A program made the translations under genes and the position numbers. The notes under the pieces are model-generated. The model was not told the origin of the DNA. It ran no database searches and was given only the letters and a program-made list of their open reading frames with translations. From assembly GCA_963829245.1 (NCBI GenBank), contig CAWHIM010000042.1, positions 2,703-66,702 of the forward strand: a stretch of DNA of 64,000 nt, read 5' to 3'. Positions 3,161-18,604 of the stretch are shown one piece after another; the first letter of the stretch is position 1, and each line of letters opens with the position of its first letter. Origin of the DNA: an uncultured bacterium. GTDB lineage: Bacteria; Desulfobacterota; Deferrimicrobia; Deferrimicrobiales; Deferrimicrobiaceae.

Positions 3161-3589
3161 TTAGGAGACGCCAAGCTTGGACAGGATGTCGACGATCCGT
3201 TGTTTGTCCATAAACCCGATATGTCGGAAAACCTCCTTGCCTTTTTCATCAAAGAATATCTGGGTGGGAATCGTTTGTATTCCGTATACTTTCGCTTGTG
3301 CCGGATCTTTCCACACATCGATAAACAAGATATCGGCTTTTCCGGCATACTGGATTTTCAACTCCGCGAGAATGGGCGCCATCATCTTGCAGGGGATGCA
3401 TTCGGTCGCTCCCAGATCGATCATGGTGACTCTACCGGTACCGGGTGAAGGCAGCGGGGTGCTTTGCGCCTGCAGGCCGACAGTTCCTGACGGATTGGTC
3501 CCGGGACGGGATTCCGTCACGGCGTAAACAACCACCACGGCGATAAAGGCAAGCACTCCGATCATCCACCATTTCCTGTTCCGCTTCAT
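3161..3589 (-). CDS. membrane-anchored thioredoxin-like protein (TlpA/ResA family, CxxC)
   Basis: N-terminal TM anchor, thioredoxin fold with CIPC active site; directly upstream of ccdA in the same operon. Confidence 0.8.
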   Translation of the reverse strand: MKRNRKWWMIGVLAFIAVVVVYAVTESRPGTNPSGTVGLQAQSTPLPSPGTGRVTMIDLGATECIPCKMMAPILAELKIQYAGKADILFIDVWKDPAQAKVYGIQTIPTQIFFDEKGKEVFRHIGFMDKQRIVDILSKLGVS

Positions 3590-3662: not shown

Positions 3663-3690
3663 ATGTATATCGTCAAATAGGAATATAGCG
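3663..3690. promoter_or_regulatory. degenerate copy of the ATATCGTCAAATA... operator-like motif, in the promoter region of the tlpA-ccdA operon
   Basis: atgtatatcgtcaaataggaatatag resembles the motif found upstream of arsR, the PIG-L gene and arsD. Confidence 0.3.
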
Positions 3691-3890
3691 TAGTGACGCC
3701 ATCCTGTCAAAGACATTTGCGGATTACGGGCGTTCGCATCACCCATGCCGGGTTGCGATTTCCTTACCCCTTCAACTTGCGGTACAGGGGAGAGAGCCTC
3801 GAACGGTAGATCTCCCGGATGGTTTCCTCATCGTCCACCTCTTTTCAAGAAAACCGCCCTCTTCGGTCGTCGGCGGTGAATTCCGGGGGA

Positions 3891-4842
3891 TCACCGGAGG
3901 ATCCCCCGGACGACGACATCCACCGCTTCCTCTTCCGTCAGTCCCCGGGCCATCAGCGTCTCGACCTGCTTCTTGTCCACGCTCCCGATGGCCGCCTCGT
4001 GCGTCAGTTTGGCGCGGTCGTCGGTCACGAGGAGCCTCGGGACGGCGCTGACGCGCGCATCCTTCCCCTTCACGATCTCCACGCAGTCGACGTGGCCCCT
4101 CGCACCCGGCGCGTTCCCGACCGCTTCCCCGACGACCTCGCTCACGCAATGGTCGGAGGCGACGATCCGGCTCTTCGCCAGTCCTCTCGCCTTCTCCCCG
4201 TTCAGGAACAGGGACTCCTTGACGCGGATCGCATCATTCTTTTTCCCGTAGACCCGGGCGTCCAGCTCGCAAGTGGCGTCCTTTCCGATGTCGGCCTCGT
4301 AGTCGATCCGCAGCTCCCCGGCCGCTCCCTGGACGAGTTTGAACAGGCTTCGGTAGGACCCTCCCTCGTCGATGGTGATCCTCGCCGTGGGCAACACCTC
4401 GACTCCGCCCTCTTCGCCGTGGTAATGCGTTTCCGAATATTCGAGAGCGGCATGTTTCCCCACGTGGATCCGCGCGTCCATCACGTGGCGGACCTTCACG
4501 GCGTTCGGGAACATGCAATGCGCGAGAAAGCTTGCTTTCGCGCCTTCCCCCACGAGGAATTCCGAGACGATCTCCTGCGTGCCTTCCTTCGGGAGGACGC
4601 CGAAGCACAGGTGGACCGGGTGCTCGACGTGGACCCCGGGATCGACCGTGATCTTCGCCCTGACGCCGGTCGGGGTCTCCTCTCCCTCGATGTGGACTCC
4701 GGGGGCGTCGTTGCTGCGAAGGATCCTCCGATGGCTCACCATCAGCCCGGCGATTTTTCCGTCGGAGAGTGACGGCCGGGTCGCCGCCGCTCGCCTCGTA
4801 CGCCTTGGACATCGCCAGGAATTCCTTCGTAGAGTCACTCAT
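3891..4842 (-). CDS. SufB/SufD family Fe-S cluster assembly protein (one apparent frameshift near 4750)
   Basis: SufBD-family sequence. N-terminus MSDSTKEFLAMSKAYEASGGDPAVTL overlaps the sufC stop (ATGA-type coupling), then the reading frame shifts. Confidence 0.7.
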
Positions 4843-5584
4843 GGAGCAGGACCTCCCCGGGAGGCGTGCTCCCATGGGGGCACTCCCGGCAATGGTTCTG
4901 GAAAAAGCGGCCGATGGCGAGGGGATCGCCGGTCTTCAGGATGGTGCCACCGCACAAGGAGGAAGCCCGGTCCGCCGATGCGGCGATTTCGTTCTGGTGG
5001 GTGATCAGGAGCACGGAGGCCCCGTTCTTCGCAAGGATTCGCACGGCGTCCAGAATCCGGTTCAGGGAGAGCGCGTCGATGCCGGAGTCCGGTTCGTCCA
5101 GGATGGAGAGCCTGGGGCCCATCGAGAGGATGGATGCCAGCTCTACGCGTTTCCGCTCCCCGCCGCTCAAGGTGGCGTCGACGGTTCGCTGGAGATACCT
5201 GTCCGGCGGAAGGCCCACCATGACGAGGCATTCGCCCGGAGAAGGGCCGCTGCCAGGAGAGCCGTGCCTTCCCAGTTCCAGGTATTCCCGGACCGTCAGG
5301 CCCTCGAACCGGGCGGGTTCCTGCCAGGCAAGGGTGATGCCTCGTTTCGCCCGATCCGAGATGGGCAAGGCGGTGATCTCCTCGCCCCAGAAGAAGACTT
5401 TCCCGGACGTCGGGGAAAACCCGGATAGGCCCATGATGACCGAGGAAAGGGTCGACTTGCCGGACCCGTTCATCCCGAGGATCGCGTGGATTTCCCCGGG
5501 GAGCACGTGCAGGTTGAGATCGTGAAGGATCGGTTTGCCCCCGACGGACATTCCGACGTCGATAAGGTCCAGCACGGAGATCAC
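4835..5584 (-). CDS. sufC: Fe-S cluster assembly ATPase SufC
   Basis: ABC ATPase with Walker A GMNGSGKST, signature LSGGERKR and D-loop ILDEPDSG; SufC-type N-terminus. Confidence 0.85.
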   Translation of the reverse strand: MISVLDLIDVGMSVGGKPILHDLNLHVLPGEIHAILGMNGSGKSTLSSVIMGLSGFSPTSGKVFFWGEEITALPISDRAKRGITLAWQEPARFEGLTVREYLELGRHGSPGSGPSPGECLVMVGLPPDRYLQRTVDATLSGGERKRVELASILSMGPRLSILDEPDSGIDALSLNRILDAVRILAKNGASVLLITHQNEIAASADRASSLCGGTILKTGDPLAIGRFFQNHCRECPHGSTPPGEVLLHE

Positions 5585-5634
5585 CGCCCCTCGGCGCTTC
5601 GGGAAATGGGATTCCCGTCAGCGGTTACTCGCCT

Positions 5635-5919
5635 TCAACCCTTCATCGCCTGCCGTGCGATCCGCTCCTTGATGAACGCCGAGAAAGCGGCCTCGTCGGG
5701 GAAGCGGATGGCACCTTCCGGGCACAGTTTTCCGCAGGTGCTGCACTCCACGACGCAGTTGTAAGGGTTTTTCACCCGGGACTTCCCGGCGGCTTCATCG
5801 AGCTCCAGGACGTCGTTCTTGCAGAAATCGACGCAGGTCCGGCACCCCGTGCACTGGTCCGGGTCGATCGTCGGGTACCATGGGATCTCCTCTCTCGGGA
5901 TCCCGCGCCAGGTCTTCAT
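5635..5919 (-). CDS. 2x[4Fe-4S] ferredoxin
   Basis: Two CxxCxxC..CP motifs (CTGCRTCVDFC, CVVECSTCGKLCP); 94 aa. Confidence 0.75.
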   Translation of the reverse strand: MKTWRGIPREEIPWYPTIDPDQCTGCRTCVDFCKNDVLELDEAAGKSRVKNPYNCVVECSTCGKLCPEGAIRFPDEAAFSAFIKERIARQAMKG

Positions 5920-5931
5920 GGCTGCCTCCGG

Positions 5932-6291
5932 TCAGGCGGCATTGGCGACCATCCCCTTGATCGCCTCGACGGCCTCTTCCGTGGTCTTGTTCCGGATGTC
6001 GAGAGGCACCATCCGGGACTTGTCGAACCCCGCGGCATCGAGCGCATCCCGGAACATCTTCTCCTGCATCCGCGGGTCGCACGCGGCGATGTACAGCCTG
6101 TCCGTATCCTTCCCCGCCAGCAGGACCTTGAGGAATTCCTCGCCGTCCCCGACGCAGAGCTGCGGGTGCAGGCACACGTAATCGAAGATCTTCTCCCTGC
6201 GGATATCGGAGAGCACATTCATGATGTCCATCTTCTTGAAGCTCGGGCAGGTCCCCTGGCAGTTGCAAAGAATGAATCCCTTCTTTCCCAT
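5932..6291 (-). CDS. small Cys-rich putative iron-sulfur protein (MvhD/FlpD-like?)
   Basis: 119 aa with FILCNCQGTCP and later Cys motifs loosely resembling the hydrogenase delta-subunit family; assignment tentative. Confidence 0.4.
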   Translation of the reverse strand: MGKKGFILCNCQGTCPSFKKMDIMNVLSDIRREKIFDYVCLHPQLCVGDGEEFLKVLLAGKDTDRLYIAACDPRMQEKMFRDALDAAGFDKSRMVPLDIRNKTTEEAVEAIKGMVANAA

Positions 6292-6463
6292 GGCGAACTC
6301 CTTTCTGCCCCATCAAACGTTATATCTGCATCCGTAGATATGATGCACGGGAAAGCGGAAAAGATCAACAATAATGCGACACGGAGTAATAGCGATGAGG
6401 CCCGAGGTAAGACGGAGGATTAGCGGGAATAAGTGTCTGAAAGGATTGGAGGAATATCGTCCG

Positions 6464-6934
6464 TTATCTTTCGTCCCCGTGGCCGAAGAGGACCTTCAGG
6501 CGGCGGTGGAGTTCGTCGCGGACGGATCGGAACGCATTGAGGCGGGTTTCTTCTGTTCCGGTGACGCACGCCGGGTCGGGAAGCCCCCAGTGGACACGGT
6601 GCGCCTTCCCGAGGAATACGGGGCAGACCTCCTCGGCGCAGAGGGTGATCACGGCGTCGACGGACCCGGCGTCGATGGAATCCAGCCCCTTGGATCGGTG
6701 ACCTGAGATGTCGATGCCGATCTCCTTGAGGACCTGGATCGCCTGCGGGCGGACAGGGGAGGGGGACGATCCGGCGGAAGAGACCGTTACCCCTTGAGAA
6801 GCGAGAGAGCGGGCGATCCCCTCGGCCATCTGGCTCCTCGCGGAGTTGGCGACGCAAAGGAACAGGATGTGTCGCGGCCGTTTCGCCTGGAGTTCCGCGG
6901 CCTCGGTCCTCCAGTCCGCGGGTCGAGCACTCAT
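6464..6934 (-). CDS. arsC: arsenate reductase, LMW protein-tyrosine-phosphatase (thioredoxin-coupled) type
   Basis: P-loop CVANSARS plus downstream Cys residues; start MSARP overlaps the arsR stop (ATGA); the long upstream ORF extension is an artefact. Confidence 0.85.
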   Translation of the reverse strand: MSARPADWRTEAAELQAKRPRHILFLCVANSARSQMAEGIARSLASQGVTVSSAGSSPSPVRPQAIQVLKEIGIDISGHRSKGLDSIDAGSVDAVITLCAEEVCPVFLGKAHRVHWGLPDPACVTGTEETRLNAFRSVRDELHRRLKVLFGHGDER

Positions 6935-7332
6935 CGCTTTGCCGCCGGACGCCGCCGGCCGGGCAGGGTCATCTTTCGCTCGCAGATCGCCATTGGGCCG
7001 ATCGACCTCGCCATTGCCGCCCGCTCCCGGTCTTTCGCGACGACCGGATCGTCGTTCAGCCAACTCCGGAGGTTCCGCAGCATACGTGTGGCATACGGGG
7101 AGTCGTTCCCGCGGTCCAACGAATAGTGGACCCATTTCCTGTCCCGCCGGTCCTTGATGAGTCCCGCTGCCCGGAGCAGGAAGAGGTGCTTCGACACGGT
7201 GGACTGCCCGAGGGAGAGGATCGCGATGACCTGGCAGACGCACATCTCCCCGCCTTCGAGGATCTTGAGGATCCGGACCCGGGTAGGGTCCGCGACGGCC
7301 TTCAAAACGGTCTCGTAATCGCGCAGTCCCAT
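6931..7332 (-). CDS. arsR: ArsR/SmtB family metalloregulator
   Basis: wHTH with metal-binding-site-like EMCVCQV; first gene of the arsR-arsC pair. Confidence 0.85.
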   Translation of the reverse strand: MGLRDYETVLKAVADPTRVRILKILEGGEMCVCQVIAILSLGQSTVSKHLFLLRAAGLIKDRRDRKWVHYSLDRGNDSPYATRMLRNLRSWLNDDPVVAKDRERAAMARSIGPMAICERKMTLPGRRRPAAKR

Positions 7333-7343
7333 CTGTCGTCTCC

Positions 7344-7369
7344 CATATCGTCAATGACCGAATTGAAAG
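7344..7369. promoter_or_regulatory. putative ArsR operator/promoter motif (copy upstream of arsR itself)
   Basis: catatcgtcaatgaccgaattgaaag: inverted repeat GTCAA-N8-TTGAA related to the other copies. Confidence 0.45.
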
Positions 7370-7439
7370 ATCGTCCCGCCGGAGCGACTATCCTTCACGA
7401 CTATCTTACACGTTCCCTTATTCGCCGGGCAAGGAGGCA

Positions 7440-7553
7440 GATACGGCCGTAGTCGGACCGCCGGAGGAAGGAAATGGCCGCGAAGGCGACACCCGGTTCG
7501 CGCCTTCCCGACACGGCCGCGAGAGGCGCCAAGCCCACCGTTACGATGACCAT
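7440..7553 (-). pseudogene. remnant 5' end of a TauE/SafE-like gene (duplicate of 12091-12474)
   Basis: Encodes ..TMVIVTVGLAPLAAVSG.., matching METIIVVTAGL.. of the full copy; homology is lost after ~35 codons. Confidence 0.45.
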
Positions 7554-7578
7554 GGTATCCACGGCATCCTCATCCCTT

Positions 7579-7633
7579 TGACATATCGTCATTTAACGAA
7601 TTGACATTATAGGGCGCGGGATAAATAATATCC
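7579..7633 (+). promoter_or_regulatory. operator/promoter cassette copy 1 (TTGACA -35 at 7601-7606, AT-rich -10)
   Basis: tgacatatcgtcatttaacgaattgacattatagggcgcgggataaataatat, near-identical to the copies at 12493 and 13629. Confidence 0.5.
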
Positions 7634-7754
7634 ACCAGCCTGATATTTCTTGAAACGGTAATTCGGGCGCCCTGAGAATCGGAATGTGTTTGCACCTGCC
7701 CACTCGTCCTGGAATCCGGAAGATCCGCCGGGATTCCGGTATGAAACGTAAGGT

Positions 7755-7900
7755 GTGACCCTCGCGCCCCACAGGATTCTTGCGATATTTGCTCATCCGG
7801 ACGACGAAACATTCATGGCCGGAGTGTCCCTGACGAAGTATGCGGATGCCGGTTGGGAGTATCCGTGCTTTGCGCGACGCACGGCGAGGCCGGACGTCGA
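7755..7900 (+). pseudogene. truncated, frameshifted 5' fragment of a PIG-L family deacetylase gene (duplicate of 12678-13385)
   Basis: RILAIFAHPDDETFMAG..LTKYADAGWE matches the intact paralog; a 1-nt deletion then shifts frame and homology ends by ~7900. Confidence 0.55.
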
Positions 7901-8012
7901 GGAGACTCCAACCGTGCAGGGGAGAACATCTTCCGTGTCCCATTGGTGTCCACATTTCTCATATGGAAGTTGTTCGGGGGAAAGACAGGCAAAACAATAA
8001 TTATAGTATATA

Positions 8013-8024
8013 CAGCATATGCTG
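8013..8024. promoter_or_regulatory. perfect 12-bp palindrome CAGCATATGCTG in an AT-rich island upstream of the Cys-rich AbrB-like gene
   Basis: Self-complementary 12-mer inside a ~70-bp AT-rich tract (7990-8045) in an otherwise ~68% GC window. Confidence 0.4.
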
Positions 8025-8073
8025 ATGTTTCAGCAATAGGTGCACAGCATGATTACGGGGGAGGGGAGGAGAG

Positions 8074-8358
8074 ATGGACAAGAAGACAAAAAGCGTTTCC
8101 TGCTGCGGACCGACGGGGAAAAGCTTCGCAGGCTGCCGGGTCGAATCCCTTATTGCGGTCGACGACCGTGGGCAGATGGTGCTTCCCAAGGACCTGCGGG
8201 TCAAGGCAAACATCAAGGGGGGCGACAAACTTGCTGTGATCACCTGGGAGAAGGAGGGGAAGGTGTGCTGCCTCTCGCTGATCAAGGCCGAGGAGTTCGG
8301 CGGAATGATCAAGGGACTGATCGGGCCGTTGATGGGTGACGTGCTCAAGAATATCTGA
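8074..8358 (+). CDS. AbrB/MazE/SpoVT-type DNA-binding protein with Cys-rich N-terminal extension (vicinal CC pairs)
   Basis: C-terminal swapped-hairpin motif DDRGQMVLPKDLRVKANIKGGDKLAV; N-terminus SCCGPTGKSFAGC plus a later VCC pair; GGGAGG RBS; ends 14 nt before arsM. Confidence 0.6.
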   Translation: MDKKTKSVSCCGPTGKSFAGCRVESLIAVDDRGQMVLPKDLRVKANIKGGDKLAVITWEKEGKVCCLSLIKAEEFGGMIKGLIGPLMGDVLKNI

Positions 8359-8371
8359 AGGAGGGATGGAG

Positions 8372-9199
8372 ATGAAAGCTGAAGATATTTTGAAATACGT
8401 GAGGGATCGATATGCCGGCATCGCGAAACAGGAAGGGTCCTGCTGCGGCCCATCCGCATGCTGCGGCGCCCCCGAGGCGGCGGAAGAAGCGAGTGGCCGG
8501 ATCGGTTATACGGAAGGGGAAATGAAATCGGCACCCCGGGAGTCCAACTTGGGACTCGGCTGCGGCAACCCGACAGCGCTTGCTTCCCTGCGGGCAGGGG
8601 AGACCGTTCTGGACCTGGGCTCGGGAGCGGGCTTCGACTGCTTCCTGGCGGCGGGACAGGTCGGTCACGGAGGGAAAGTCATTGGCGTCGACATGACCGC
8701 GGAGATGATTCAAAAGGCCCGCGAGAACGCCCGAAAGGGCAACCATGAAAACGTCGAATTCCGGTTGGGGGAGATCGAGCATCTGCCGGCTGCCAATGAC
8801 TCCGTGGACATCGTCATCTCCAACTGCGTCATCAACCTTTCTCCGGCCAAGGACAAGGTTTTCGCCGAGGCCTACCGGGTTCTCAAGCGGGGAGGCAGGG
8901 CAATGATCTCGGACATCGTCCTTTCCGGGGATCTGCCGGAAGCTGTTGCCGGTTCCCTGGCCGCTTATGCCGGATGCATCGCCGGGGCGATCCGGGAGGA
9001 AAAATACCTTTGCCTTATGGAAGCAGCGGGGTTCCAAGACGTCCATGTCGTCCAGGAGAGCCGATTTGAAATCGCGGAAATCGAGATTGACGCGTATGCC
9101 TCGAGCATTGCAGGGAATTTCAACATCCTTCCGGAAGCGGTCCGGGAAGCAGCCAGGTCAGTTTTGAGTGTGCAAGTCTTCGGGAGAAAGCCGTCGTAG
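8372..9199 (+). CDS. arsM: arsenite S-adenosylmethionine methyltransferase
   Basis: N-terminal Cys cluster CCGPSACCG, class I SAM-MTase motif LDLGSGAG, downstream conserved Cys residues; AAGGAGGG RBS. Confidence 0.85.
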   Translation: MKAEDILKYVRDRYAGIAKQEGSCCGPSACCGAPEAAEEASGRIGYTEGEMKSAPRESNLGLGCGNPTALASLRAGETVLDLGSGAGFDCFLAAGQVGHGGKVIGVDMTAEMIQKARENARKGNHENVEFRLGEIEHLPAANDSVDIVISNCVINLSPAKDKVFAEAYRVLKRGGRAMISDIVLSGDLPEAVAGSLAAYAGCIAGAIREEKYLCLMEAAGFQDVHVVQESRFEIAEIEIDAYASSIAGNFNILPEAVREAARSVLSVQVFGRKPS

Positions 9200-9209
9200 G
9201 AGGATGCCT

Positions 9210-9600
9210 TGATGTACGGCAAGAGATCTTTCCAGGAGAACTACGAGAGGTACCAGCCGGGGATCCTTTGATTCCTGTCTCGCCTTGTGGGCGAGGAGGA
9301 GACCGGAGACGTGGCTCTCCGGGTGGATCGGGGGCCTGAATATGGTCCTGTGGCGCCGTCCAGGCGAAGTCATCCATCATTCCGACCAAGGGTGCCAGTA
9401 CCTCGGGTCGGCGCGGAAGCCGCGGCGTGGCTGGAAAGGGAAGCCAGGAGTTTCACCGAGTTCCTCTTCCTGCACCGGGCGGTGCCCGCGGAAGTGGGAG
9501 CCACCCTGGCGGACGGAGGGATTCATGCCGAGGGAATCATGGAGACGATGGATGGAGAGATCCTGCAGATCGCGGTCCGGAAATATTTTCGCTGACGTCA
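9210..9600 (+). mobile_element. degenerate IS3-family transposase (OrfB/rve) remnant, multiply frameshifted
   Basis: Fragments VIHHSDQGCQY (DDE-integrase HSDRGSQY motif) and MET..GEILQIAVRKYFR (MESFFGTLK..RKYF-like C-terminus) lie in different frames. Confidence 0.55.
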
Positions 9601-9622
9601 GAACATACGGGAGGAAAGAGAG

Positions 9623-10521
9623 ATGGGCATCAACAGACGGAACTTCCTGAAGGTCGCGGGGGCGGCCGGCAGCATGCTGCTCGCGGGGGGGGCCAAGTCG
9701 GCCTGGACCGCGCAGACCCCGGGAGGAAGTGTCGAGTTCTACGGGATCCTCATCGATACGACCAAGTGCATCGGCTGCCGCGCTTGCGAGGAGGCGTGCA
9801 ACGCACAGAACAGTCTGCCCAAGCCGGAAGTTTCCTTTTCCAGCGAGAGCGTGTTCGAGAAGAAAAGGGAGACGACCCCGGACGCCTTCGTTGTCGTCAA
9901 TCGGTTCCCGAACGGGAAGAGCCCGGAGAAGCCGATCTTCGTCCGGAGACAGTGCATGCATTGCACCGAGCCTTCCTGCGCCTCGGCCTGCCTGTGCAAG
10001 GCGATGGAGAAGATGCCCGAAGGACCGACCGTCTACCACAAGGACCGCTGCATGGGATGCCGATATTGCATGATTTCGTGCCCCTTCGATATCCCGAAGT
10101 TCGAATACAACAGCCCTACCCCGTACGTGAAGAAGTGCATCGGATGCCCCGATCGCGTGGCGAAGGGTGAACAGACCGCGTGCGCGGAAGCCTGTCCCGA
10201 GGGTGCGACCCTGTTCGGAAAGCGGAGGGATCTGATCGAGGAAGCCAAGAAAAGGATCTACCAGAACCCGGAACGGTACTACCCGCACATCTACGGCGAA
10301 CATGAAGTCGGGGGAACGGGCTACATGTACCTCTCGGCCGTCCCGTTCGAAAAGTCGGCTTCCGGACCGACCTGGGGACGAAGAATTACCCGGAACTGAC
10401 GTCCGGATTCCTGTCCTCCGTTCCTCTCGTGGACATCCTCTGGCCGGCGGTCCTGTTCGGCTTCAGCTACCTCATTTCCGACAAGGAAGAAGACGGGAAG
10501 GAGAACAACCATGAAAAGTAA
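9623..10521 (+). CDS. Tat-secreted 4Fe-4S ferredoxin-type subunit (NrfC/HybA/DsrO-like), one frameshift near 10375
   Basis: RRNFLK twin-arginine signal, four Cys clusters; C-terminal TM anchor (..ILWPAVLFGFSYLISDKEE..) only in the +1 frame; ATGA-type overlap with next gene. Confidence 0.8.
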
Positions 10522-11818
10522 CATCAAGCCGATGCCCATCCCCGGCATGCCGGACGCGATGGACACGGGTACCCTGAAGGGGTTCCTGCGGTTCCTCTGG
10601 CAGGAGCTGAAACCAAAGGGGAAGGTCCTGACGCCGTTCAATATCATCACCGGGATCATCATCCTGGGCGGGATCATCCTCATCGGCATCCGGCTCGTCA
10701 AGGGGCTCGGCGCCGTGACGAACCTCTCCCAGACGTATCCCTGGGGGATCTGGATCGGCTTCGACGTCGTGACGGGCGTCGCCTTCGCCGGAGGCGCGTA
10801 CATCCTGACCTTTGCCGTACACATCCTGAAGGTCAAGAAGTACGAGCCGATCGTGCGGGCAACCGTGCTGAACGGTTTTCTGGCCTACGTCTTCTACAGC
10901 GGCGCCCTCCTGCTCGACCTGGGACGCCCCTGGAACGTCGTCAACCCCATCATCGGGAACGCCTTCGGGTACGGGTCGGTGCTCTTCCTGGTCGCCTGGC
11001 ATTTCCTCCTGTACACACTGTGCCTGTTCGTCGAGGTCTCCCCCGCGATCGCCGAGTGGCTGAAATGGGTCAAGGCGCGGCGGATCATCGAGAAGATGAC
11101 CACCGCCACCGTCATCCTGGGCGTGACGCTGTCGACGCTGCACCAGGCGGGGCTGGGCGCCTTGTTCCTCACGGCGCCATCCAAGATCCATCCCCTCTGG
11201 TACTCGAGCAACATCCCGGTCCTGTTCTTCATCTCGAGCATGTTCGCGGGGTTTTCGTTGATCATCATCGAGAGCATGTTCACGCACAAGATCTTCTCCG
11301 ACCGGCTCGACGAATCCCATCGGGCGTCGCACAACAAGATCCTCCTCGGCCTCGCGAAGGGGTCGGCCAGCGTCATGGCCGCCTACCTGTTCCTGAAAGT
11401 GATCGACCTGACGCACGGCCATCATCTGGGGTTGCTCCTCACCCCGATGGGGCTCTGGTATCTGGTCGAGGTCGCCGGGTTCACCCTGCTCCCTCTCGTT
11501 CTTTACGTCGTCGCCATCCGGCAGCAAAGCGTAAGGCTCGTCCAGATCACCGCGTTCCTCACGGCCTTCGGCGTGATCCTGAACCGGATGAACATCTCCG
11601 TGATCGCGTTCAAGTGGTACGAGGCGGTTCGGTATTACCCGTCCTGGATGGAGATCTGGATCACGCTCGCGGTCATCAGCATGGAACTCTGGGTGTTCCA
11701 GTGGGTCATCAACCGGATGCCGATCCTCGGAGCGGACCCGGCCTTCAAGTCGGAAGAGAAAACCGTAAACAACCTTAATGATGGGGAGGTAGTGCAATGG
11801 AAGGTTTCAGACACATAG
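10511..11818 (+). CDS. NrfD/PsrC/HybB-family polytopic membrane subunit
   Basis: 435 aa, ~10 TM helices, NrfD-family pattern; translationally coupled to the upstream FeS subunit. Confidence 0.85.
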   Translation: MKSNIKPMPIPGMPDAMDTGTLKGFLRFLWQELKPKGKVLTPFNIITGIIILGGIILIGIRLVKGLGAVTNLSQTYPWGIWIGFDVVTGVAFAGGAYILTFAVHILKVKKYEPIVRATVLNGFLAYVFYSGALLLDLGRPWNVVNPIIGNAFGYGSVLFLVAWHFLLYTLCLFVEVSPAIAEWLKWVKARRIIEKMTTATVILGVTLSTLHQAGLGALFLTAPSKIHPLWYSSNIPVLFFISSMFAGFSLIIIESMFTHKIFSDRLDESHRASHNKILLGLAKGSASVMAAYLFLKVIDLTHGHHLGLLLTPMGLWYLVEVAGFTLLPLVLYVVAIRQQSVRLVQITAFLTAFGVILNRMNISVIAFKWYEAVRYYPSWMEIWITLAVISMELWVFQWVINRMPILGADPAFKSEEKTVNNLNDGEVVQWKVSDT

Positions 11819-11939
11819 ACACTTACATGGGCAGGTCCCTTCGCCGAAAGTATTTAAGCTGGGCCCATGCAGGAGGATTGCCGTTTTTGCCGTCCGCAAC
11901 GCGATGATGGAAGGGGGCTTTCAAGTTTTCTTATATCGC

Positions 11940-12052
11940 CAATTCTCGAAACGGGCCACATGGCCGAGAGTGGGGCCATGGTCGCCATGCGGAAGTTTAC
12001 CGAGGATATAATGTCGAACCAACCGGCGAATGAAACCAATGATGGAGATTGA
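11940..12052 (+). pseudogene. 3' fragment of an AhpD-like carboxymuconolactone-decarboxylase-family gene (duplicate of the 13422-13631 3' end)
   Basis: ETGHMAESGAMVAMRKFTEDIMS matches ETGHMVEKGAMAAMRKFTDDVLS of the intact copy; the N-terminal part is absent. Confidence 0.5.
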
Positions 12053-12090
12053 GCGGCAATCTGAATGTCTTGATCATGCCGCAGGCCGGT

Positions 12091-12474
12091 TTACCGCAAG
12101 AGGGTCCATATTTTGTATAAGGTCATGATGACGATGAGGACGCCGAACAGCTGCTTGATCCGTGCGCTCGGCATGTAAAGGCTGGTGATGCGGGCGCCGG
12201 CGAACGAGCCGGCCGCTCCGGCGACCAGGAGCACCACCGTCAGGGTCGGATCGAAGTGCGCGGTCGCCACGTGGGGAATGAGGGAAGCCAAACACCGAGA
12301 AAAGGGCGGTTACGCCATTCAGGAGAAGGCTCAGGGGCTGCACCTGGTGCACCAGGTCGGGGAGGAAACAGTCCGAGGAAGGGAATGGCCGCGAAGGCGA
12401 CCCCCAGCCCGAGCATGCCGGATACGACGGCAGAACAGGGTCAAGCCGGCCGTGACAACGATGATCGTTTCCAT
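12091..12474 (-). CDS. TauE/SafE (DUF81)-like small membrane protein, apparently frameshifted
   Basis: N-terminus METIIVVTAGL.. and C-terminal TM region ..AGAAGSFAGARITSLYMP..LFGVLIVIMTLY lie in different frames. Confidence 0.5.
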
Positions 12475-12830
12475 GGCGTCCTCCCGCTACGTTGATCATA
12501 TCGCTCAAATAACGAATTGACATTATAGCGCGTCGGATAAATAATATCCACCAGCTTGAATTTGTATGAAACAGGAAACCGGGAGCAGGGAGGATCGGAA
12601 TGCGTTTGCGCCTGACCACTCGTCCTGGAATCCCGGAGATCCTCCGGGATTCCAATATGAAGCGGAAAGTGTGACCCGTGTCTTACAGGATTCTTGCGAT
12701 ATTCGCGCATCCAGACGATGAGACGTTCCTTGCCGGAGGAACCTTGACGAAGTATGCGGATGCCGGGTGGGAGGTGTCCGTGCTTTGCGCGACGCGCGGC
12801 GAGGCCGGACGGCGGGGAGAATACGGAAAG
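12371..12830. repeat. segmental duplication copy B (intact side)
   Basis: Pairs with 7456-7900. Confidence 0.6.
12493..12550 (+). promoter_or_regulatory. operator/promoter cassette copy 2 driving the PIG-L / AhpD-like genes
   Basis: tgatcatatcgctcaaataacgaattgacattatagcgcgtcggataaataatat; TTGACA at 12517-12522. Confidence 0.5.
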
Positions 12831-13385
12831 GATAATATTTCCGCCGGGGAATTCGCACTGGTACGACAGCGGGAGATGGAGGATGCCTGCCGTGTCCTCG
12901 GTGTGGGAAAACCGCTCTTCCTGAAATGCGCCGACGGGGGAGTCGCGAAGGATTGCCGGGACTCCGCGACGACGGAAATTGTCCGGTTCCTCCGCAAATG
13001 GAAGCCGGACGTGGTCATCACGTTCGGCCCGGATGGCGTCTCGGGCCACACCGATCACGTGGCGATCGGCGGGATCGCGACCGTTGCGGCACGGGAAGCC
13101 GGGGTCCGTTCCTTGTACTATGTGTTGCGGTCCGAATCGCTGTCGACGTGCTGCAAACCCGAGGTTCCGGTTTCATCTCCTCCCGTGACGACGGTGATCG
13201 ACGTGAGCGGTTTTGGAGAGCGCAAACTCCGGGCCATGCGCTGTTACAGAAGCCAGAAGCACCTGCTGTCGGAGGACCCGGCCGTGATCAGGGACACGGT
13301 AAACGGGCGGGAGCACTTCCACCGTGCGCTTCCGGCCGGATTCACCGCGGGACGCGAAGATCATCTGTTCGTTCCGTTTTCCTGA
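12678..13385 (+). CDS. PIG-L/LmbE family N-acetylglucosaminyl deacetylase (MshB/BshB-like)
   Basis: AHPDDE zinc-binding motif, HxDH motif (GHTDHVA); 235 aa intact. Confidence 0.8.
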   Translation: MSYRILAIFAHPDDETFLAGGTLTKYADAGWEVSVLCATRGEAGRRGEYGKDNISAGEFALVRQREMEDACRVLGVGKPLFLKCADGGVAKDCRDSATTEIVRFLRKWKPDVVITFGPDGVSGHTDHVAIGGIATVAAREAGVRSLYYVLRSESLSTCCKPEVPVSSPPVTTVIDVSGFGERKLRAMRCYRSQKHLLSEDPAVIRDTVNGREHFHRALPAGFTAGREDHLFVPFS

Positions 13386-13421
13386 GCGCAAGGAACAGAA
13401 CGGGAAAGGAAGGTAATACAT

Positions 13422-13631
13422 ATGGATGAACGCACCAAAGAACTGATCGCAATCGGCGCATCCGTGGGCGCCCACTGCCAGCCGTGCCTCACCTGGCATA
13501 TGAAGAAAGCGCGTGAACTGGGGATCGACGACGAGACGATCCGGGCCGCGATCGAAACGGGCCACATGGTCGAGAAAGGCGCCATGGCCGCCATGCGGAA
13601 GTTTACCGACGATGTCTTGTCCGGTAAATGA
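13422..13631 (+). CDS. carboxymuconolactone decarboxylase (AhpD-like) family protein with CxxC
   Basis: 69 aa; AhpD-core signature AHCQPCLTWH. Confidence 0.7.
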   Translation: MDERTKELIAIGASVGAHCQPCLTWHMKKARELGIDDETIRAAIETGHMVEKGAMAAMRKFTDDVLSGK

Positions 13632-13680
13632 CATATCGTCAAATAACGAATTGACAAATACGCATCGAAGGAACGATAAT
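13629..13680 (+). promoter_or_regulatory. operator/promoter cassette copy 3 upstream of arsD (TTGACA 13651-13656, GATAAT 13675-13680, 18-nt spacer)
   Basis: tgacatatcgtcaaataacgaattgacaaatacgcatcgaaggaacgataat; inverted repeat GTCAA-N8-TTGAC overlapping the -35. Confidence 0.55.
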
Positions 13681-13738
13681 ACGCTTTGCGTATATCTTAT
13701 GAGTACTTATCCGGATTCTCCGGGCAAGGAGGCAGATC

Positions 13739-14038
13739 TTGAGGAAGCTGGAAATCTACGAGCCGCCGTTGTGCTGTCCCACCGGGGTGTGCGGGCCGGC
13801 GCCCGATCCCGCCCTGGCGAAGCTCCAGGAGGACATCCTTCGGTGGAAGAAGGCGGGCGTCGTCGTCGAGCGGCTTGCGATCAACCAGGTCCCGCAGCGG
13901 TTCATGTCGAATCCGGCGGTGGTCGACCTGCTGACCCGCGAGGGGCAGGAGGTCCTGCCGATCGCCCTGCTCGACGGGAAAGTCGTCTGCAAGGGGAAAT
14001 ACCCGACGTACGACCAGGTCACCCGGGAGGGGATGTAG
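13739..14038 (+). CDS. arsD: arsenical metallochaperone/repressor ArsD
   Basis: PPLCCPTGVCG motif and ..LDGKVV..GKYPT ArsD fold; TTG start 6 nt after AGGAGG. Confidence 0.85.
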   Translation: MRKLEIYEPPLCCPTGVCGPAPDPALAKLQEDILRWKKAGVVVERLAINQVPQRFMSNPAVVDLLTREGQEVLPIALLDGKVVCKGKYPTYDQVTREGM

Positions 14039-14266
14039 ATGCCGACCTACGCATACCTGTGCCGCGCCTGCGGCCGTCCGTTCGAGATGCGGATGTCCAT
14101 CCGGGAGAAAGAACGTGGAAGCCCCGCTGTCCGGTGTGCGGCAGCGCGAAGGTGGAGCAGCAGCTCTTCGGCTTCTCCTTCGGTGGGGCGGGGGCGGAGC
14201 ACCCGCCCCGGGCGGGTGATGCCCCCCCGGCCGCGGCGGTCGCTGCGGGTGAAAAGCCGGTGGTGA
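14039..14266 (+). CDS. FmdB-family zinc-ribbon protein (frameshifted, end uncertain)
   Basis: MPTYAYLCRACGRPFEMRMSIREKE, then in the +1 frame ..CPVCGSAKVEQQLFGFSFGG; two CxxC knuckles typical of the FmdB zinc ribbon. Confidence 0.5.
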   Translation: MPTYAYLCRACGRPFEMRMSIREKERGSPAVRCAAARRWSSSSSASPSVGRGRSTRPGRVMPPRPRRSLRVKSRW

Positions 14267-14305
14267 GGACGGCGGATCCCGGATGGATGGGGGGTAAGGC
14301 GGTTC

Positions 14306-16168
14306 ATGCACAAATACACGTTCTTTTCCGGCAAGGGCGGGGTGGGAAAAACCACCCTTGCGGCGGCCACGGCCGTGCGCACGGCGCAGGCGGGGAAACG
14401 GACCCTGATCGTCTCCACGGACCCGGCCAGCAACCTGGCCGACGTCTTCGAACGCCCCATCGGGCCCCGGGTCACGGAGATCGCGCCGAACCTGTTCGCA
14501 CTCGAGATCGATCCGGATACCGCCACAAAGGAGTACGGGGAGCGCGCGCTGGCGCCCTTGCGCGCCGTGCTTCCTCCGGACGCCATGAAGGTTCTCGAGG
14601 AACAGTTCCGAAGCGCCTGCACGGTCGAGATCGCCTCGTTCGACCGGTTCACCGACTTTCTCGGCGATACGGAGTTCGACCACGTGGTCTTCGACACCGC
14701 GCCCACGGGTCACACGCTCCGACTGCTCGAGCTCCCGGTGGACTGGTCCCGCCATATCGAGGAAGCCGCGCAGGGGAACGGCCAGACGTGCATCGGGCCG
14801 GTCGCCTCCCTGCAGGGGGCAAAGGCGAAATACGACCACGCCATCGCCGCGCTCCGGGACCCCGGTGAGACGGAGTTCACGCTGGTCTGCCGTCCGGAGC
14901 GGACCTCCGTGGACGAGCTGCTCCGGGCCCGCGAAGAGCTGCGGATGCTCGGGATCGGAAACTTCCGGATCGTGGTGAACGGGGTGATCCCGGTCGGGGC
15001 GGGGGGGCCGTTCGCGAACCAGTCCTCTTCCCAGCGGGAGCAGGTCCGCCGTCTTTCCGGGAAGGATCGACCGACCCTGCATCGAGGTGCCCCTCCAGGC
15101 AGGGGAAGTGAAGGGGCTTTCCGCCCTGGGGCGGTTCGCCGCCATCGCCTTCGACGGAAAGGAAGATTCCCTCCACGACGGATTCACGGGAACCCGCGCC
15201 TACACGGGGTTTTCTCCTCCGTACGCCCTGAGGAGGATGGTGACCGGCGATGGTCGGAGCAGGACGGTCGTCCTGACCGGCAAGGGAGGGGTCGGGAAAA
15301 CCGTCGCTGCATGCGCCCTGGCGGCTCGCCTCGCGCGGGAGGGGAAACGGATCCTCCTGGCGACCACCGACCCGGCGGCCCACATCGGGTCGGTCCTTTC
15401 GGCGGAGGTGTCGAGCGAAGTGCGTCCCGTTCCGGACTACCCCGGGCTCTTCGCCGTCCGGATCGACCAGAAGGAGAGCGTCGAGGCGTACAAGGCGAAG
15501 ATCCTCTCCCAGGCGGCCGCGTCCGGCCACACCGGCGAGATGCTCGCCGTGGTGAAGGAGGAGCTGGAATCCCCCTGCACGGAGGAGATGGCGGTCTTCG
15601 AGGAGTTCTCCGGCCTGGTGGAGCGGGACGATTTCGACGTTGTGGTCCTCGACACCGCACCCACGGGGCACACCTTGCGGCTTCTCGAACTGCCGTACGA
15701 CTACGCCCGGCAGGTCGAGATGATGGTGGCCGTCCGGAAGGACGACGCCGGGGCGACCGGCGCCAAGGGGAAGCTCGACGCGCTCGTCCGTCGTCTGAAG
15801 GATCCCCGGGCGACGACCTTCCTCCTCGTGATCTACCCGGAATACACCCCGATCTTCGAGGCGAAACGGGCCGCGGAAGACCTGAAGGAGTCCGGCATCG
15901 AGGTGCAGGGCGTCATCGCCAATTTTATTCTCGAAGAGGACGACTGTTCGTCTCCGTTCTCCATGTCGCGATTCCTCATGCAGCAGCACTATCTCAAGGT
16001 GGCGGAGGAGACGTTCCGGCTGCCGATCTTCAAGGTGCCCATGCTGCCGTCGGAGCCCGCGGGCAAGGATGCCCTGGACCGGGTGGGCAGGGAGTTGCTC
16101 GGGAACGGAAAACATCGCATTCGCCGTTCCGGAAGCGGCGGCGGGAATCGAAGGAGGGGGCAACATGA
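14306..16168 (+). CDS. arsA: arsenite-transporting ATPase ArsA (two P-loop halves), with frameshift(s)
   Basis: Two GKGGVGKT Walker A motifs, DTAPTGHTLRLLELP signature in both halves, metalloid-binding Cys residues. Frame changes near 15060-15090; the 3' end near 16100-16168 is ambiguous. Confidence 0.8.
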   Translation: MHKYTFFSGKGGVGKTTLAAATAVRTAQAGKRTLIVSTDPASNLADVFERPIGPRVTEIAPNLFALEIDPDTATKEYGERALAPLRAVLPPDAMKVLEEQFRSACTVEIASFDRFTDFLGDTEFDHVVFDTAPTGHTLRLLELPVDWSRHIEEAAQGNGQTCIGPVASLQGAKAKYDHAIAALRDPGETEFTLVCRPERTSVDELLRAREELRMLGIGNFRIVVNGVIPVGAGGPFANQSSSQREQVRRLSGKDRPTLHRGAPPGRGSEGAFRPGAVRRHRLRRKGRFPPRRIHGNPRLHGVFSSVRPEEDGDRRWSEQDGRPDRQGRGRENRRCMRPGGSPRAGGETDPPGDHRPGGPHRVGPFGGGVERSASRSGLPRALRRPDRPEGERRGVQGEDPLPGGRVRPHRRDARRGEGGAGIPLHGGDGGLRGVLRPGGAGRFRRCGPRHRTHGAHLAASRTAVRLRPAGRDDGGRPEGRRRGDRRQGEARRARPSSEGSPGDDLPPRDLPGIHPDLRGETGRGRPEGVRHRGAGRHRQFYSRRGRLFVSVLHVAIPHAAALSQGGGGDVPAADLQGAHAAVGARGQGCPGPGGQGVARERKTSHSPFRKRRRESKEGAT

Positions 16169-16392
16169 ACGTGAAAGAGTTCGCGGAGCAGTTCAAGGCG
16201 CTTTCGAAGGAAGATCAGATGGCCGTGATCCGGCAGATCATGCCCGGGTTCTGCGAGAGCATGATGAGCGACCCGAAGGGGATCCTGGAGATGTTCTCCC
16301 TGATGACGGAGGAGTGCGGGGAGCCGATGGCGAACATGGTCTCCATGATGGGGATGATGATGGGCCGCAAGGGCGGGGGCTGCTGCGGATGA
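16165..16392 (+). CDS. small Met-rich protein ending in GGGCCG (putative metal(loid)-binding)
   Basis: 75 aa; strong AAGGAGG RBS; Met clusters MVSMMGMMMG and C-terminal vicinal Cys pair; between arsA and acr3. Confidence 0.5.
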   Translation: MNVKEFAEQFKALSKEDQMAVIRQIMPGFCESMMSDPKGILEMFSLMTEECGEPMANMVSMMGMMMGRKGGGCCG

Positions 16393-16407
16393 GCGGTTCT
16401 CCGTCCT

Positions 16408-17487
<1,080 letters not shown>

Positions 17488-17508
17488 GGGGCAAGAAGAA
17501 AAGCCGGC

Positions 17509-18604
17509 GTGCTGTTCCGGGGCGGGGGGTGCGGGGAGACCGCGGTCGACGTCGCCTCCGCCATCCCGTCGCCCGGCGCGCAGGCCGGGGCGTGGCGGTA
17601 CCTCCTCGCCGGCGGGCTCCTTCTCGCGGCCTGGTGGGCGCTCTACCTCAGCCTGCCGCCGTTTTCGGTGGTTCACGTATTCACTGTTTCCGCTCGCTCC
17701 CGACACGCGGCTCGGCACGGCTGTCGAGTTCTTCGTCTACGATGGTCCCAAGGTCCTCCTCCTCCTTACCCTCGTGGTCTTCGGCGTGGGCATCGTGCGC
17801 TCTTACTTCACCCCGGAGCGGGCCCGGAGGATCCTCGCGGGGAAACGGGAGGCGGTTGGGAACGTGATGGCGGCCCTCCTTGGCATCGTAACGCCCTTCT
17901 GTTCCTGCTCGGCGGTGCCGCTGTTCATCGGGTTCGTCACCTCGGGCGTCCCGCTCGGCGTGACGTTCTCCTTCCTCGTGTCCGCGCCGATGGTCAACGA
18001 AATCGCGCTGGTCCTTCTCTTCGGCCTGTTCGGCTGGAAGATCGCCGCGCTCTATCTCGGGACGGGGCTCGTGATCGCGATGGTGTCCGGCTGGGTGATC
18101 GGGCGTCTCGGGATGGAGCGGTACGTCGAGGAGTGGGTCTACGCGATCCCCTCCGGCGGGGACGGCGCACCTGGGGAGGAGCGTCTCTCGTTGCGCGACC
18201 GGGTCCGGTACGGCTTCGACGCCGTCCGGGACATCGTCGGAAAGGTGTGGCCGTACGTGCTGGCCGGGATCGGGGTGGGGGCGGCGATCCACGGGTACGT
18301 GCCGGAGAACTTCATGGCCGGGATCATGGGGGCGCAGGCCTGGTGGTCGGTCCCGCTGGCGGTCCTGATCGGCATCCCGATGTATTCGAACGCCGCGGGG
18401 ATCATCCCCATCGTTCAGGCGCTTCTCGGCAAGGGGGCGGCGCTCGGCACGGTGCTCGCCTTCATGATGTCGGTGATCGGGCTCTCGTTCCCCGAGATGG
18501 TCATCCTGCGGAAGGTGCTGAAAGTCCGCCTGATCGCGACCTTCGCGGCCGTGGTGGGGATCGGAATCCTCCTCGTCGGCTACCTGTTCAACCTGGTCGT
18601 ATAA
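17509..18604 (+). CDS. arsP: ArsP (DUF318) organoarsenical efflux permease, N-terminal frameshift, start uncertain
   Basis: Conserved TPFCSCS and MVNEIALVLLFG motifs; N-terminal helix (..WRYLLAGGLLLAAWWALYLS..) is in another frame. Confidence 0.7.

Follow-up and report, generated by a model that had tools for sequence, protein, structure and literature searches.

We analysed a stretch of 64,000 nucleotides (64 kb) of contig CAWHIM010000042.1, from an uncultured sediment-dwelling member of the Deferrimicrobiaceae, which is called the window here. It harbors an arsenic island with a repeated cassette that is probably the operator-promoter unit of this lineage's own ArsR repressor (Deferrimicrobiaceae-type), repeated through a rearranged island; four full copies (site A and copies 1 to 3) lie inside 6.3 kb. 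In silico evidence gives good support to an ArsR-controlled island that includes both a PIG-L deacetylase and an AhpD-like protein, and, as judged from related loci, both proteins are genuine recurrent members of such arsenic clusters. The putative operators and the repressor gene are given below, with scores from a position weight matrix (PWM) that was built from operator sites of ArsR-ortholog loci and run over the window.

7345 to 7368, plus strand: site A, arsR-proximal operator ATATCGTCAATGACCGAATTGAAA (36.2 bits; alignment A1)
7583 to 7629, plus strand: copy 1, operator 7583-7606, -35 TTGACA 7601-7606, -10 AATAAT 7624-7629 (44.1 bits at 7583)
12498 to 12545, plus strand: copy 2, operator 12498-12522, -35 12517-12522, -10 12540-12545
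13633 to 13738, plus strand: copy 3, operator 13633-13656, -35 13651-13656, -10 GATAAT 13675-13680 (45.2 bits at 13633), then a leader with CCGGATTCTCCGGG and a ribosome-binding site
3667 to 3710, no strand assigned: possible weak site, a perfect half-site ATATCGTCAA at 3667-3676 (8.9 bits)
6931 to 7332, minus strand: arsR, 133 aa, ArsR/SmtB winged helix-turn-helix repressor (Pfam HTH_5 and NF033788)
6464 to 6934, minus strand: arsC, arsenate reductase of the low-molecular-weight protein tyrosine phosphatase type (Pfam LMWPc; TIGR02691 E=3e-34, under its cutoff), whose start overlaps the arsR stop (ATGA)

A first-pass annotation of the window had described three near-identical cassettes of about 55 bp. 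This description fits copies 1 and 2, which are 86% identical over 55 bp, but not copy 3, which is 70-74% identical to them and has only a 28-nt core in common with them. The related copy that had been placed upstream of arsR was recovered as site A, found at an identical position and with an identical sequence in five other contigs (L034, L035, L038, L043, and L045; related loci are given by such numbers throughout). On its 3' side, site A is followed by a weakened arsD-type promoter (TTGAAA-17-GACTAT) and the relic of a leader, up to position 7440. With at most one mismatch, GTCAA-N8-TTGAC occurred six times in the window versus 0.89 expected, and four of the six matches (7350, 7588, 12504, and 13638) coincide with the repeats first noticed. 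The 24-mer ATATCGTCAAATAACGAATTGACA, searched with up to three mismatches, gave two matches versus 0 expected, one exact at 13633 and one with two mismatches at 7583. Moreover, a sigma70 consensus scan listed three plus-strand promoters with 11 of 12 matches, TTGACA-17-AATAAT starting at 7601 and 12517 and TTGACA-18-GATAAT starting at 13651, in agreement with the annotated consensus -35 and a -10 located 17-18 nt downstream. A fifth, degenerate copy had been placed at 3663-3690; only the half-site was found there, and we dropped it as a full regulon member. The half-site overlaps the -10/+1 region of a minus-strand promoter (TTGACA-17-TATATT, 3710-3682) of the thioredoxin gene at 3161-3589. 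Both L035 and L038 keep it, which carries little information given the 89% conservation of the region as a whole in these two loci.

The window ArsR scored 59.6 bits with PF01022 (HTH_5; cutoff, 22) and 84.1 bits with NF033788 (cutoff, 55), and it has a CVC motif within EMCVCQV at residues 29-35, in helix 3. The CVC motif binds As(III) in R773-type ArsR. A scan of species-representative genomes with this protein gave 33 loci, nearly all from Deferrimicrobiaceae or "Deltaproteobacteria" metagenome-assembled genomes (MAGs) of sediments and soils. In 15 ortholog loci (ArsR identity of 75-94%), the 24-mer ATATCGTCAATTAACGAATTGACA followed by N17-GATAAT adjoins the ribosome-binding site of arsR, whose start codon is about 8-17 nt away, and its TTGACA-N17-GATAAT promoter is directed away from arsR. 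The gene downstream of it is arsD-arsA in 7 of these loci and acr3 in the other 8, and the predicted role of the same motif in driving arsD or acr3 there agrees with the earlier assignment of copy 3 to arsD-arsA-acr3-arsP. In seven relatives (L001, L002, L004, L006-L008, and L025) arsR and arsD are divergent, with about 110 bp of intergenic sequence and a single site between them. Alignment A1 comprises 23 sequences. No variation was seen in it at ATATCG.CA..., CG, TTGA, or the A..AT of the -10, while the -35/-10 spacer and the stretch adjoining arsR vary freely; operator and promoter together thus leave a phylogenetic footprint. In ArsR orthologs at a greater distance (62-70% identity), a related variant of the 20-bp palindrome, ATATTGACAGTTGACGATAT, stands at the same place by the arsR ribosome-binding site, with the -35 embedded in the arsR-proximal half of the palindrome. 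The site thus varies together with the regulator, as expected of a cognate ArsR-operator pair.

We next consider which dyad is the operator. The PWM matches its own reverse strand at offset 4, placing the symmetry centre between positions 10 and 11, and the resulting 20-bp imperfect dyad is ATATCGTCAA|TTnACGAATT, with a perfect core, TCGTCAATTGACGA, in L008. Its centre lies 4.5 nt to the left of that of the GTCAA-N8-TTGAC repeat proposed at first. In the 20-bp register, 6.6 of 10 pairs were matched in close-lineage sites (n = 25) and 6.4 of 10 in distant sites (n = 12); the GTCAA/TTGAC arms, in contrast, matched at 4.4 of 5 pairs in the former and at 2.25 of 5 in the latter. The good match of the arms in the close lineage comes from their taking in the -35 hexamer. 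In addition, the GTCAA-N8-TTGAC repeat leaves out an almost invariant ATAT at the left edge. Hence, the original repeat, although over-represented, was probably mis-registered, its arms holding only in the close lineage. The 20-bp dyad is probably the recognition element of ArsR, with the GTCAA/TTGAC repeat partly a by-product of the adjoining -35, and both dyads may be used as recognition elements. The right end of the 20-bp dyad runs into the -35 TTGACA, with the -10 another 17-18 nt on, and under either register the predicted operator overlaps the -35. The 20-bp dyad was found by arsR, overlapping the -35, in every ortholog locus with upstream sequence. Overall, the view of an ArsR operator set on a sigma70 promoter gains comparative support from the 15 loci with the motif by arsR, but the dyad differs from the one originally described.

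The motif might instead be bound by another regulator, such as an ArsR/SmtB paralog or the AbrB-type HgcC-like protein encoded inside the island. The distant ars clusters L039 and L041 do have several HTH_5 genes, and the AbrB-type gene is at hand in the window. However, the motif adjoins arsR in every ortholog locus with upstream sequence, regardless of the regulators nearby, and its variant form follows ArsR divergence. The HgcC-like gene, for its part, is missing from most motif-bearing loci and has a different palindrome of its own, CAGCATATGCTG. We therefore regard control by another regulator as very improbable.

A motif widely dispersed outside ars genes would have spoken against a regulon. 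In the window, nothing else exceeded 9 bits except shifted or reverse-strand matches overlapping the cassettes. We also scanned the surroundings of ArsR orthologs (about 626 kb) and of PIG-L homologs (about 554 kb), together about 1.18 Mb. Sites of at least 31 bits occurred there at three conserved ars intergenic positions and at one position before a thioredoxin-like gene in L001; the next best scores were 25 bits, for arsR-proximal variant sites in L013 and L016, and otherwise about 23 bits. So far as the window and the flanks of related loci show, the motif is not a dispersed repeat. The L001 site (15087-15110; 38.5 bits) is of full strength, includes TTGACA, and stands 5 kb from arsR, which suggests that, in one relative or more, a thioredoxin gene belongs to the regulon.

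The two non-canonical genes assigned to copy 2 are the following.

12678 to 13385, plus strand: PIG-L/LmbE-family zinc deacetylase, 235 aa (Pfam PIG-L, PF02585, 118 bits)
13422 to 13631, plus strand: AhpD/CMD-family protein, 69 aa, with HCQPC (Pfam CMD, TIGR00778)

The PIG-L protein has the zinc motifs AHPDD and HxDH, with H11, D14, and H127 kept throughout the homolog loci compared, two excepted, and seven cysteines, including the vicinal pair C158-C159. Its predicted structure has the PIG-L/LmbE fold and is closest to MshB (template modelling [TM] score of 0.72); the top Foldseek hits were MshB and the chitobiose deacetylase Dac (TM of about 0.7). The Cys158-159 region is predicted with a local distance difference test score (pLDDT) of 55-65. 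Against equivalog models it scored 86 versus a cutoff of 195 bits (BshB1), 82 versus 182 (BshB2), 77 versus 224 (MshB), and 77 versus 277 (Mca). Members of the ars-linked PIG-L clade keep the zinc ligands and share the additional conserved residues C84, C93, C158, and C159.

Copy 2 had been assigned to the PIG-L and AhpD-like genes and, divergently, to a TauE/SafE-like exporter gene. The first part is strengthened by a site of 31-41 bits before PIG-L in eight other contigs (L034, L035, L038, and L042-L046); the TauE gene of the window is decayed. All three sites, that before PIG-L among them, are laid out in the same way in L034, L035, L038, L042, L043, L044, and L045; L046 likewise has the PIG-L site. 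In these islands the order is arsC-arsR, site A, an optional CCG-domain gene with TauE, a site, PIG-L, a CFA-synthase-like methyltransferase, CMD, a site, and then arsD, a Zn-ribbon gene, arsA, acr3, and arsP or Usp. In five aligned PIG-L upstream sites (alignment A2), TTGACATTATAG was invariant in 5 of 5, as was the stretch AACGAATTGACATTATAG. ATTATA in this alignment is the complement of TATAAT and, with TGGATA 17 nt off, gives a predicted minus-strand promoter toward TauE. A facing minus-strand promoter, TGGATA-17-TATAAT, aimed at TauE, is present at copy 2 (12550-12522), and another is present in the copy 1 region (7634-7606). The facing promoters around copy 2 would thus form a face-to-face bidirectional pair with one common operator.

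The closest PIG-L homologs (83-91% identity) all lie within the same island type. At 54-64% identity, PIG-L homologs lie among ArsA, Acr3, ArsP_1, CMD, Zn-ribbon, ArsR-family, SufBD/SufC, and Usp genes. Among metagenome loci of at least 5 kb, a specific ars gene was present in the flanks in 10 of the 11 whose PIG-L reaches 50% identity and in 9 of the 31 whose PIG-L does not. These distant ars-linked homologs are, on the gene orders compared, a stronger argument than site conservation in close relatives.

Next to PIG-L, most relatives encode a CFA-synthase-like methyltransferase of 448 aa, between PIG-L and CMD; it is absent from this place in the window and from L043 and L045. It is also found near PIG-L in L039 (9632-10852), a locus of 60% identity. 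Its positions in three close relatives are as follows.

L034, 8780 to 10126: CFA-synthase-like methyltransferase
L035, 8865 to 10211: CFA-synthase-like methyltransferase
L038, 8724 to 10070: CFA-synthase-like methyltransferase

Two further ideas on the leaders were tried and dropped. A leader peptide was suggested by a 24-codon upstream open reading frame (ORF; 12601-12675) that has a good ribosome-binding site, but the frame and length of this ORF differ in relatives; its counterpart in L035 is called as the PIG-L N terminus. As for RNA structure, the PIG-L 5' leader (12626-12654) has a perfect 13-bp hairpin, UGGAAUCCCGGAG AUC CUCCGGGAUUCCA, just before the ribosome-binding site. The arsD leader (13711-13725) has a small hairpin, CCGGA-UUC-UCCGG, in the same position, which reads CCCGGA-UUC-UCCGGG in relatives and occurs in acr3-type relatives in altered forms that keep G-U pairs. 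The leaders folded no better than shuffled sequences (z-scores of -1.65, -0.65, and +0.63), an Rfam scan of the whole window gave no match at the gathering score, and the 13-bp hairpin had no conservation support; we thus rejected a conserved regulatory RNA in these leaders.

The AhpD-like protein scored 41 bits with PF02627 (cutoff, 23) and 40.5 bits with TIGR00778 (cutoff, 27.8). It aligns with the AhpD part (positions 281-326) of NF041537, the model of an ArsM/AhpD fusion selenoprotein, under the cutoff of that model. This family and TIGR04169 (arsenosugar-associated, peroxidase-like) are already curated in NCBIfam, and so the first-pass statement that the two enzymes are not known to act on arsenic was overstated for the AhpD-like protein; it holds for PIG-L, for which we found no paper. 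In L040 (4283-4960), a 225-aa protein joins ArsD and CMD/AhpD domains. Through this predicted fusion, a direct link is made between the AhpD-like CxxC protein and the arsenic metallochaperone.

What the two proteins do was weighed from these data. Our best guess is that they handle arsenic-thiol conjugates or supply a low-molecular-weight thiol, the CxxC protein acting as redox partner. A more specific proposal, which we put forward tentatively, is that the Cys-rich PIG-L clade (with the vicinal pair and two further cysteines) and the AhpD-like CxxC protein form an undescribed arsenic-handling module, accompanied in many genomes by the CFA-synthase-like methyltransferase. It would be ArsR controlled in Deferrimicrobiaceae and spread over the ars clusters of anaerobic soil and sediment bacteria. 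To a similar, limited degree, it is possible that both proteins are under ArsR control with no arsenic contact, giving general thiol/redox support under arsenic stress, for example by making low-molecular-weight thiols or by defence against peroxide. Among solved structures, the closest folds are indeed those of MshB, BshB, and chitobiose deacetylases, CMD/AhpD proteins are typically peroxidase related, and a thioredoxin gene stands beside the island. Mycothiol synthesis needs the PIG-L enzyme MshB. Mycothiol also serves as cofactor of the Corynebacterium arsenate reductases ArsC1 and ArsC2, and Mca, a PIG-L-family amidase, cleaves thiol S-conjugates (PMC4360819); these facts make a link between the PIG-L family and arsenic detoxification plausible, if indirect. 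However, the gene tables of the relatives' PIG-L clusters showed no BshA/BshC or MshA/MshC-type partner genes, the PIG-L protein falls far under the BshB and MshB equivalog cutoffs, and the ars-linked clade has its four extra conserved cysteines, vicinal pair included. Moreover, the fusion of AhpD domains to ArsM and, in L040, to ArsD argues for direct coupling with arsenic proteins.

The island has been heavily rearranged, as the following remnants in the window illustrate.

7457 to 7905, no strand assigned: diverged duplicate with TauE' 5' fragment (minus strand), copy 1, and PIG-L' 5' fragment 7755-7905 (direct repeats D1, D2, D4, and D5)
11946 to 12015, plus strand: CMD' 3' fragment, 70 bp (repeat D3, 87% identical to 13552-13621)
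12074 to 12474, minus strand: TauE/SafE-like remnant with a 360-bp internal deletion and three frameshifts

One could accordingly see the repeats as scars of duplication or recombination, with copies 1 and 2, and perhaps site A, having no present regulatory role and copy 3 alone working. Copies 1 and 2 do lie within a duplicated segment of about 450 bp (7457-7905 versus 12368-12820; 80% identity) that spans the TauE 5' end and the intergenic region and takes in roughly 150 bp from the start of PIG-L. Copy 1 precedes a truncated PIG-L, whose Pfam match covers model positions 1-28 only; TauE is decayed; the hexamers of site A are weakened (TTGAAA and GACTAT); copy 2 has an extra base; and the window is full of fragments (CMD', PIG-L', and TauE'). 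On the other hand, the PIG-L site keeps an intact TTGACA and -10 beside an intact PIG-L in the eight other contigs, and site A is unchanged in five. Within the window, the duplicates differ by 20% overall, but the 24-mer is nearly unchanged, with two substitutions and one extra base. On balance, we find it unlikely that the copies are scars. The equal standing at first given to copy 1 needs qualification, since it precedes only a 150-bp PIG-L remnant; it retains 44.1 bits and the intact promoter hexamers listed by the scan.

Returning to ArsR control of the repeated unit, a mechanism can be proposed by analogy with known ArsR/SmtB repressors. Without arsenite, an ArsR dimer on the 20-bp palindrome would occlude the -35 and block RNA polymerase; arsenite bound to the CVC cysteines would release the dimer. 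Site A would be a relic of an ancestral divergent arsR-arsD promoter and probably serves autoregulation. Copy 3 would drive arsD-arsA-acr3-arsP, and copy 2 would work in both directions, toward PIG-L and the AhpD-like gene on one side and toward the decayed TauE on the other. Copy 1 belongs to a second, diverged allele of the TauE/PIG-L junction and is now in front of a pseudogene, its PIG-L having been cut after 150 bp by an HgcC-like/arsM/Fer4/NrfD insertion; at best it would read into arsM. The island would have grown by modules, each with its own cassette copy, inserted between arsR and arsD.

Several points weigh against this interpretation. The left half-site of copy 2 is broken by an extra C at 12504 that is specific to the window and missing from relatives, and the PWM score of copy 2 is 13 bits with this base and 45.2 bits without it. 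The extra C may be genuine or a sequencing or assembly error, the latter perhaps because the window is rich in single-base indels. A second point concerns the promoter of arsR itself, for which we have a low-confidence candidate.

7403 to 7432, minus strand: candidate arsR promoter, TTGCCC (7432-7427), 18 nt, TAAGAT (7408-7403)

This candidate has 8 of 12 consensus matches only and was missed by the sigma70 scan; its hexamers fall in conserved columns of alignment A1, also in acr3-type loci without the arsD ribosome-binding site. If arsR is transcribed from it, as it may be, the operator would lie in the arsR 5' leader and would act as a roadblock. Third, the scan of relatives reached about 10 kb to either side of arsR or PIG-L, and sites may exist beyond these flanks. 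Fourth, conservation of the PIG-L site in close relatives is weak evidence by itself because identity is 85-90% throughout, in part from shared ancestry. Finally, the role given to PIG-L and CMD is drawn solely from gene neighbourhood.

Comparison with relatives helps to describe how the island was built and how it decayed. Window positions 3841-7905 are colinear with L034 4085-8161 (86%), where PIG-L is intact, whereas PIG-L' of the window ends at 7905. The block that follows has no counterpart at this position in L034, L035, or L038.

7906 to 11945, plus strand: inserted block
8074 to 8358, plus strand: HgcC-like AbrB-type protein (NF040962, 116 bits; cutoff, 70)
8336 to 9199, plus strand: arsM (NF008823, 341 bits; cutoff, 263)
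9200 to 9620, plus strand: stretch between arsM and the Fer4_11 gene, no family assigned
9623 to 10399, plus strand: twin-arginine translocation (TAT) Fer4_11 protein, frameshifted (Pfam/NCBIfam)
10511 to 11818, plus strand: NrfD/HmcC-like protein (Pfam/NCBIfam)

A consensus scan found no terminator-like site between copy 1 and arsM, so that transcripts from copy 1 may run on into arsM. However, the HgcC-like/arsM pair is itself preceded, 50 nt upstream, by a perfect palindrome, CAGCATATGCTG, at 8013-8024, and a related element, CAGCATAT, precedes the HgcC-like gene of L017 (2860-2910); this palindrome may be the separate operator of an arsM module. The HgcC-type protein ("HgcAB-associated" in NCBIfam) has an N-terminal CC motif, and its gene overlaps the arsM start. 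Within the block, the peptide VLWRRPGEVIHHSDQGCQY (9345-9400) looks like a DDE-transposase core motif; a search for an insertion sequence remnant at about 9345-9400 gave no Pfam rve match and no match in the plasmid collection. Parts of membrane redox complexes were also seen in ars islands, namely the Fer4_11 and NrfD/HmcC-like genes of the window (9623-11818) and, in relatives (L035 5638-7038), a GlpC/HdrD-like CCG-domain protein adjoining TauE.

The CMD' fragment matches the CMD 3' ends of L034, L035, and L038. TauE did not pass as an intact gene: 127 stitched aa match PF01925 positions 129-236 (the C-terminal half) only, and no counterpart of L038 7182-7541 is present, while the TauE of relatives is intact (246 aa). 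Positions 7341-7440, with site A, the weakened promoter, and a leader ending in GGGCAAGGAGGCAG, are a 67%-identical copy of 13629-13738, which directly precedes arsD, and with two copies of the promoter unit at these ends, about 6.2 kb would have been placed between them. The window, L034-L038, and L042-L045 have such extra site-bearing modules between arsR and arsD. Downstream of copy 3 lies the main operon.

13739 to 18604, plus strand: arsD-arsA-acr3-arsP operon (Pfam ArsD, ArsA_ATPase, SBF)
13739 to 14038, plus strand: arsD, followed by an FmdB-type Zn-ribbon gene
from 14306, plus strand: arsA, followed by a 75-aa ORF
16408 to 17487, plus strand: acr3
about 17491 to 18604, plus strand: arsP

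It is 91% colinear with L034, L035, and L038, where the genes are annotated as ArsD, Zn_ribbon_8, ArsA, SBF, and ArsP_1. On the minus strand, downstream of arsRC, are genes for a 119-aa protein, a ferredoxin, and SufC-like and SufBD-like proteins, along with the thioredoxin gene (3161-3589). The group at 3891-6291 comprises SufBD-like, a SufC-like ABC ATPase, a small ferredoxin, and the 119-aa protein, which has weak HdrA N-terminal similarity. Suf-like genes also stand beside ars in L002, L034, L035, L038, L039, and L041, and SufBD/SufC recur in distant ars clusters adjoining PIG-L; from its neighbourhood, this looks like an ars-linked Suf-like module.

Relative to related loci, single-base indels were seen in the Zn-ribbon gene (14113), arsA (15065, 15250, 15258, and 16104), the arsA-acr3 stretch (16156), acr3 (16725 and 17434), TauE (12369 and 12432), the SufBD/SufC junction (4773), and copy 2 (12504). 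Most lie outside homopolymers and inside conserved genes. They may reflect an error-prone assembly or widespread gene decay, and pseudogene calls based on frameshifts alone are uncertain because the indels may be assembly errors. The truncations and the 360-bp and approximately 1.4-kb deletions are unaffected by this doubt.

Known ArsR systems offer close parallels. Pseudomonas putida ArsR footprints from -39 to +14, and arsenite relieves its repression (PMC7994332). Like P. putida ArsR1/ArsR2 (Pars1/Pars2) and Escherichia coli R773 ArsR, the window protein is a small winged helix-turn-helix repressor with a CVC As(III) site, a partially palindromic operator over a sigma70 core promoter, and a site at the repressor's own gene. 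Release by arsenite is known in those systems and is proposed for the window ArsR by analogy. Unlike in them, the window operator overlaps the -35 and not the -10, is present in four copies within 6.3 kb, and belongs to divergent or bidirectional promoter units. The seven relatives with divergent arsR and arsD (ArsR identity of 86-93%) share the same 24-mer with arsD-arsA downstream, but the window has extra modules and sites between arsR and arsD where they have one region and one site. The operator-promoter unit is lineage specific and ordinary in kind; a search of the paper library for the operator sequence (the ATATCGTCAA half-site) found no relevant paper. The PIG-L protein resembles MshB, Mca, and BshB1/2 in fold, AHPDD and HxDH zinc motifs, and size, and differs from them in scoring 77-86 bits versus cutoffs of 182-277, in having C84, C93, C158, and C159, and in having ars genes rather than thiol biosynthesis genes as neighbours. 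The AhpD-like protein shares with NF041537 and TIGR04169 a small CMD/AhpD core, a CxxC (CxxU) motif, and a place beside arsenic genes. In contrast to them, it is free-standing at 69 aa, lies under their cutoffs, and is encoded next to PIG-L and arsD rather than fused to ArsM. In the same library, the combination of PIG-L, arsR, and arsenic gave no paper, and LmbE with arsenite gave two reviews on thiols only.

Overall, these results define a putative ArsR operator sequence of a lineage that is abundant, uncultured, and active in iron and sulfur cycling; this sequence could serve in MAG regulon prediction and biosensor design. They also give an example of an arsenic island growing through modules that each bring the same operator-promoter unit. 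The Cys-rich PIG-L, the AhpD-like CxxC protein, and the CFA-synthase-like methyltransferase are flagged as recurrent, probably co-regulated, and uncharacterised members of anoxic arsenic clusters. If they do form a module, its substrates could, for instance, be arsenic-thiol or organoarsenical conjugates, cleaved or remodelled ahead of export through Acr3 or ArsP. How arsenic is mobilised and methylated in anoxic settings is of importance to rice paddies and groundwater.

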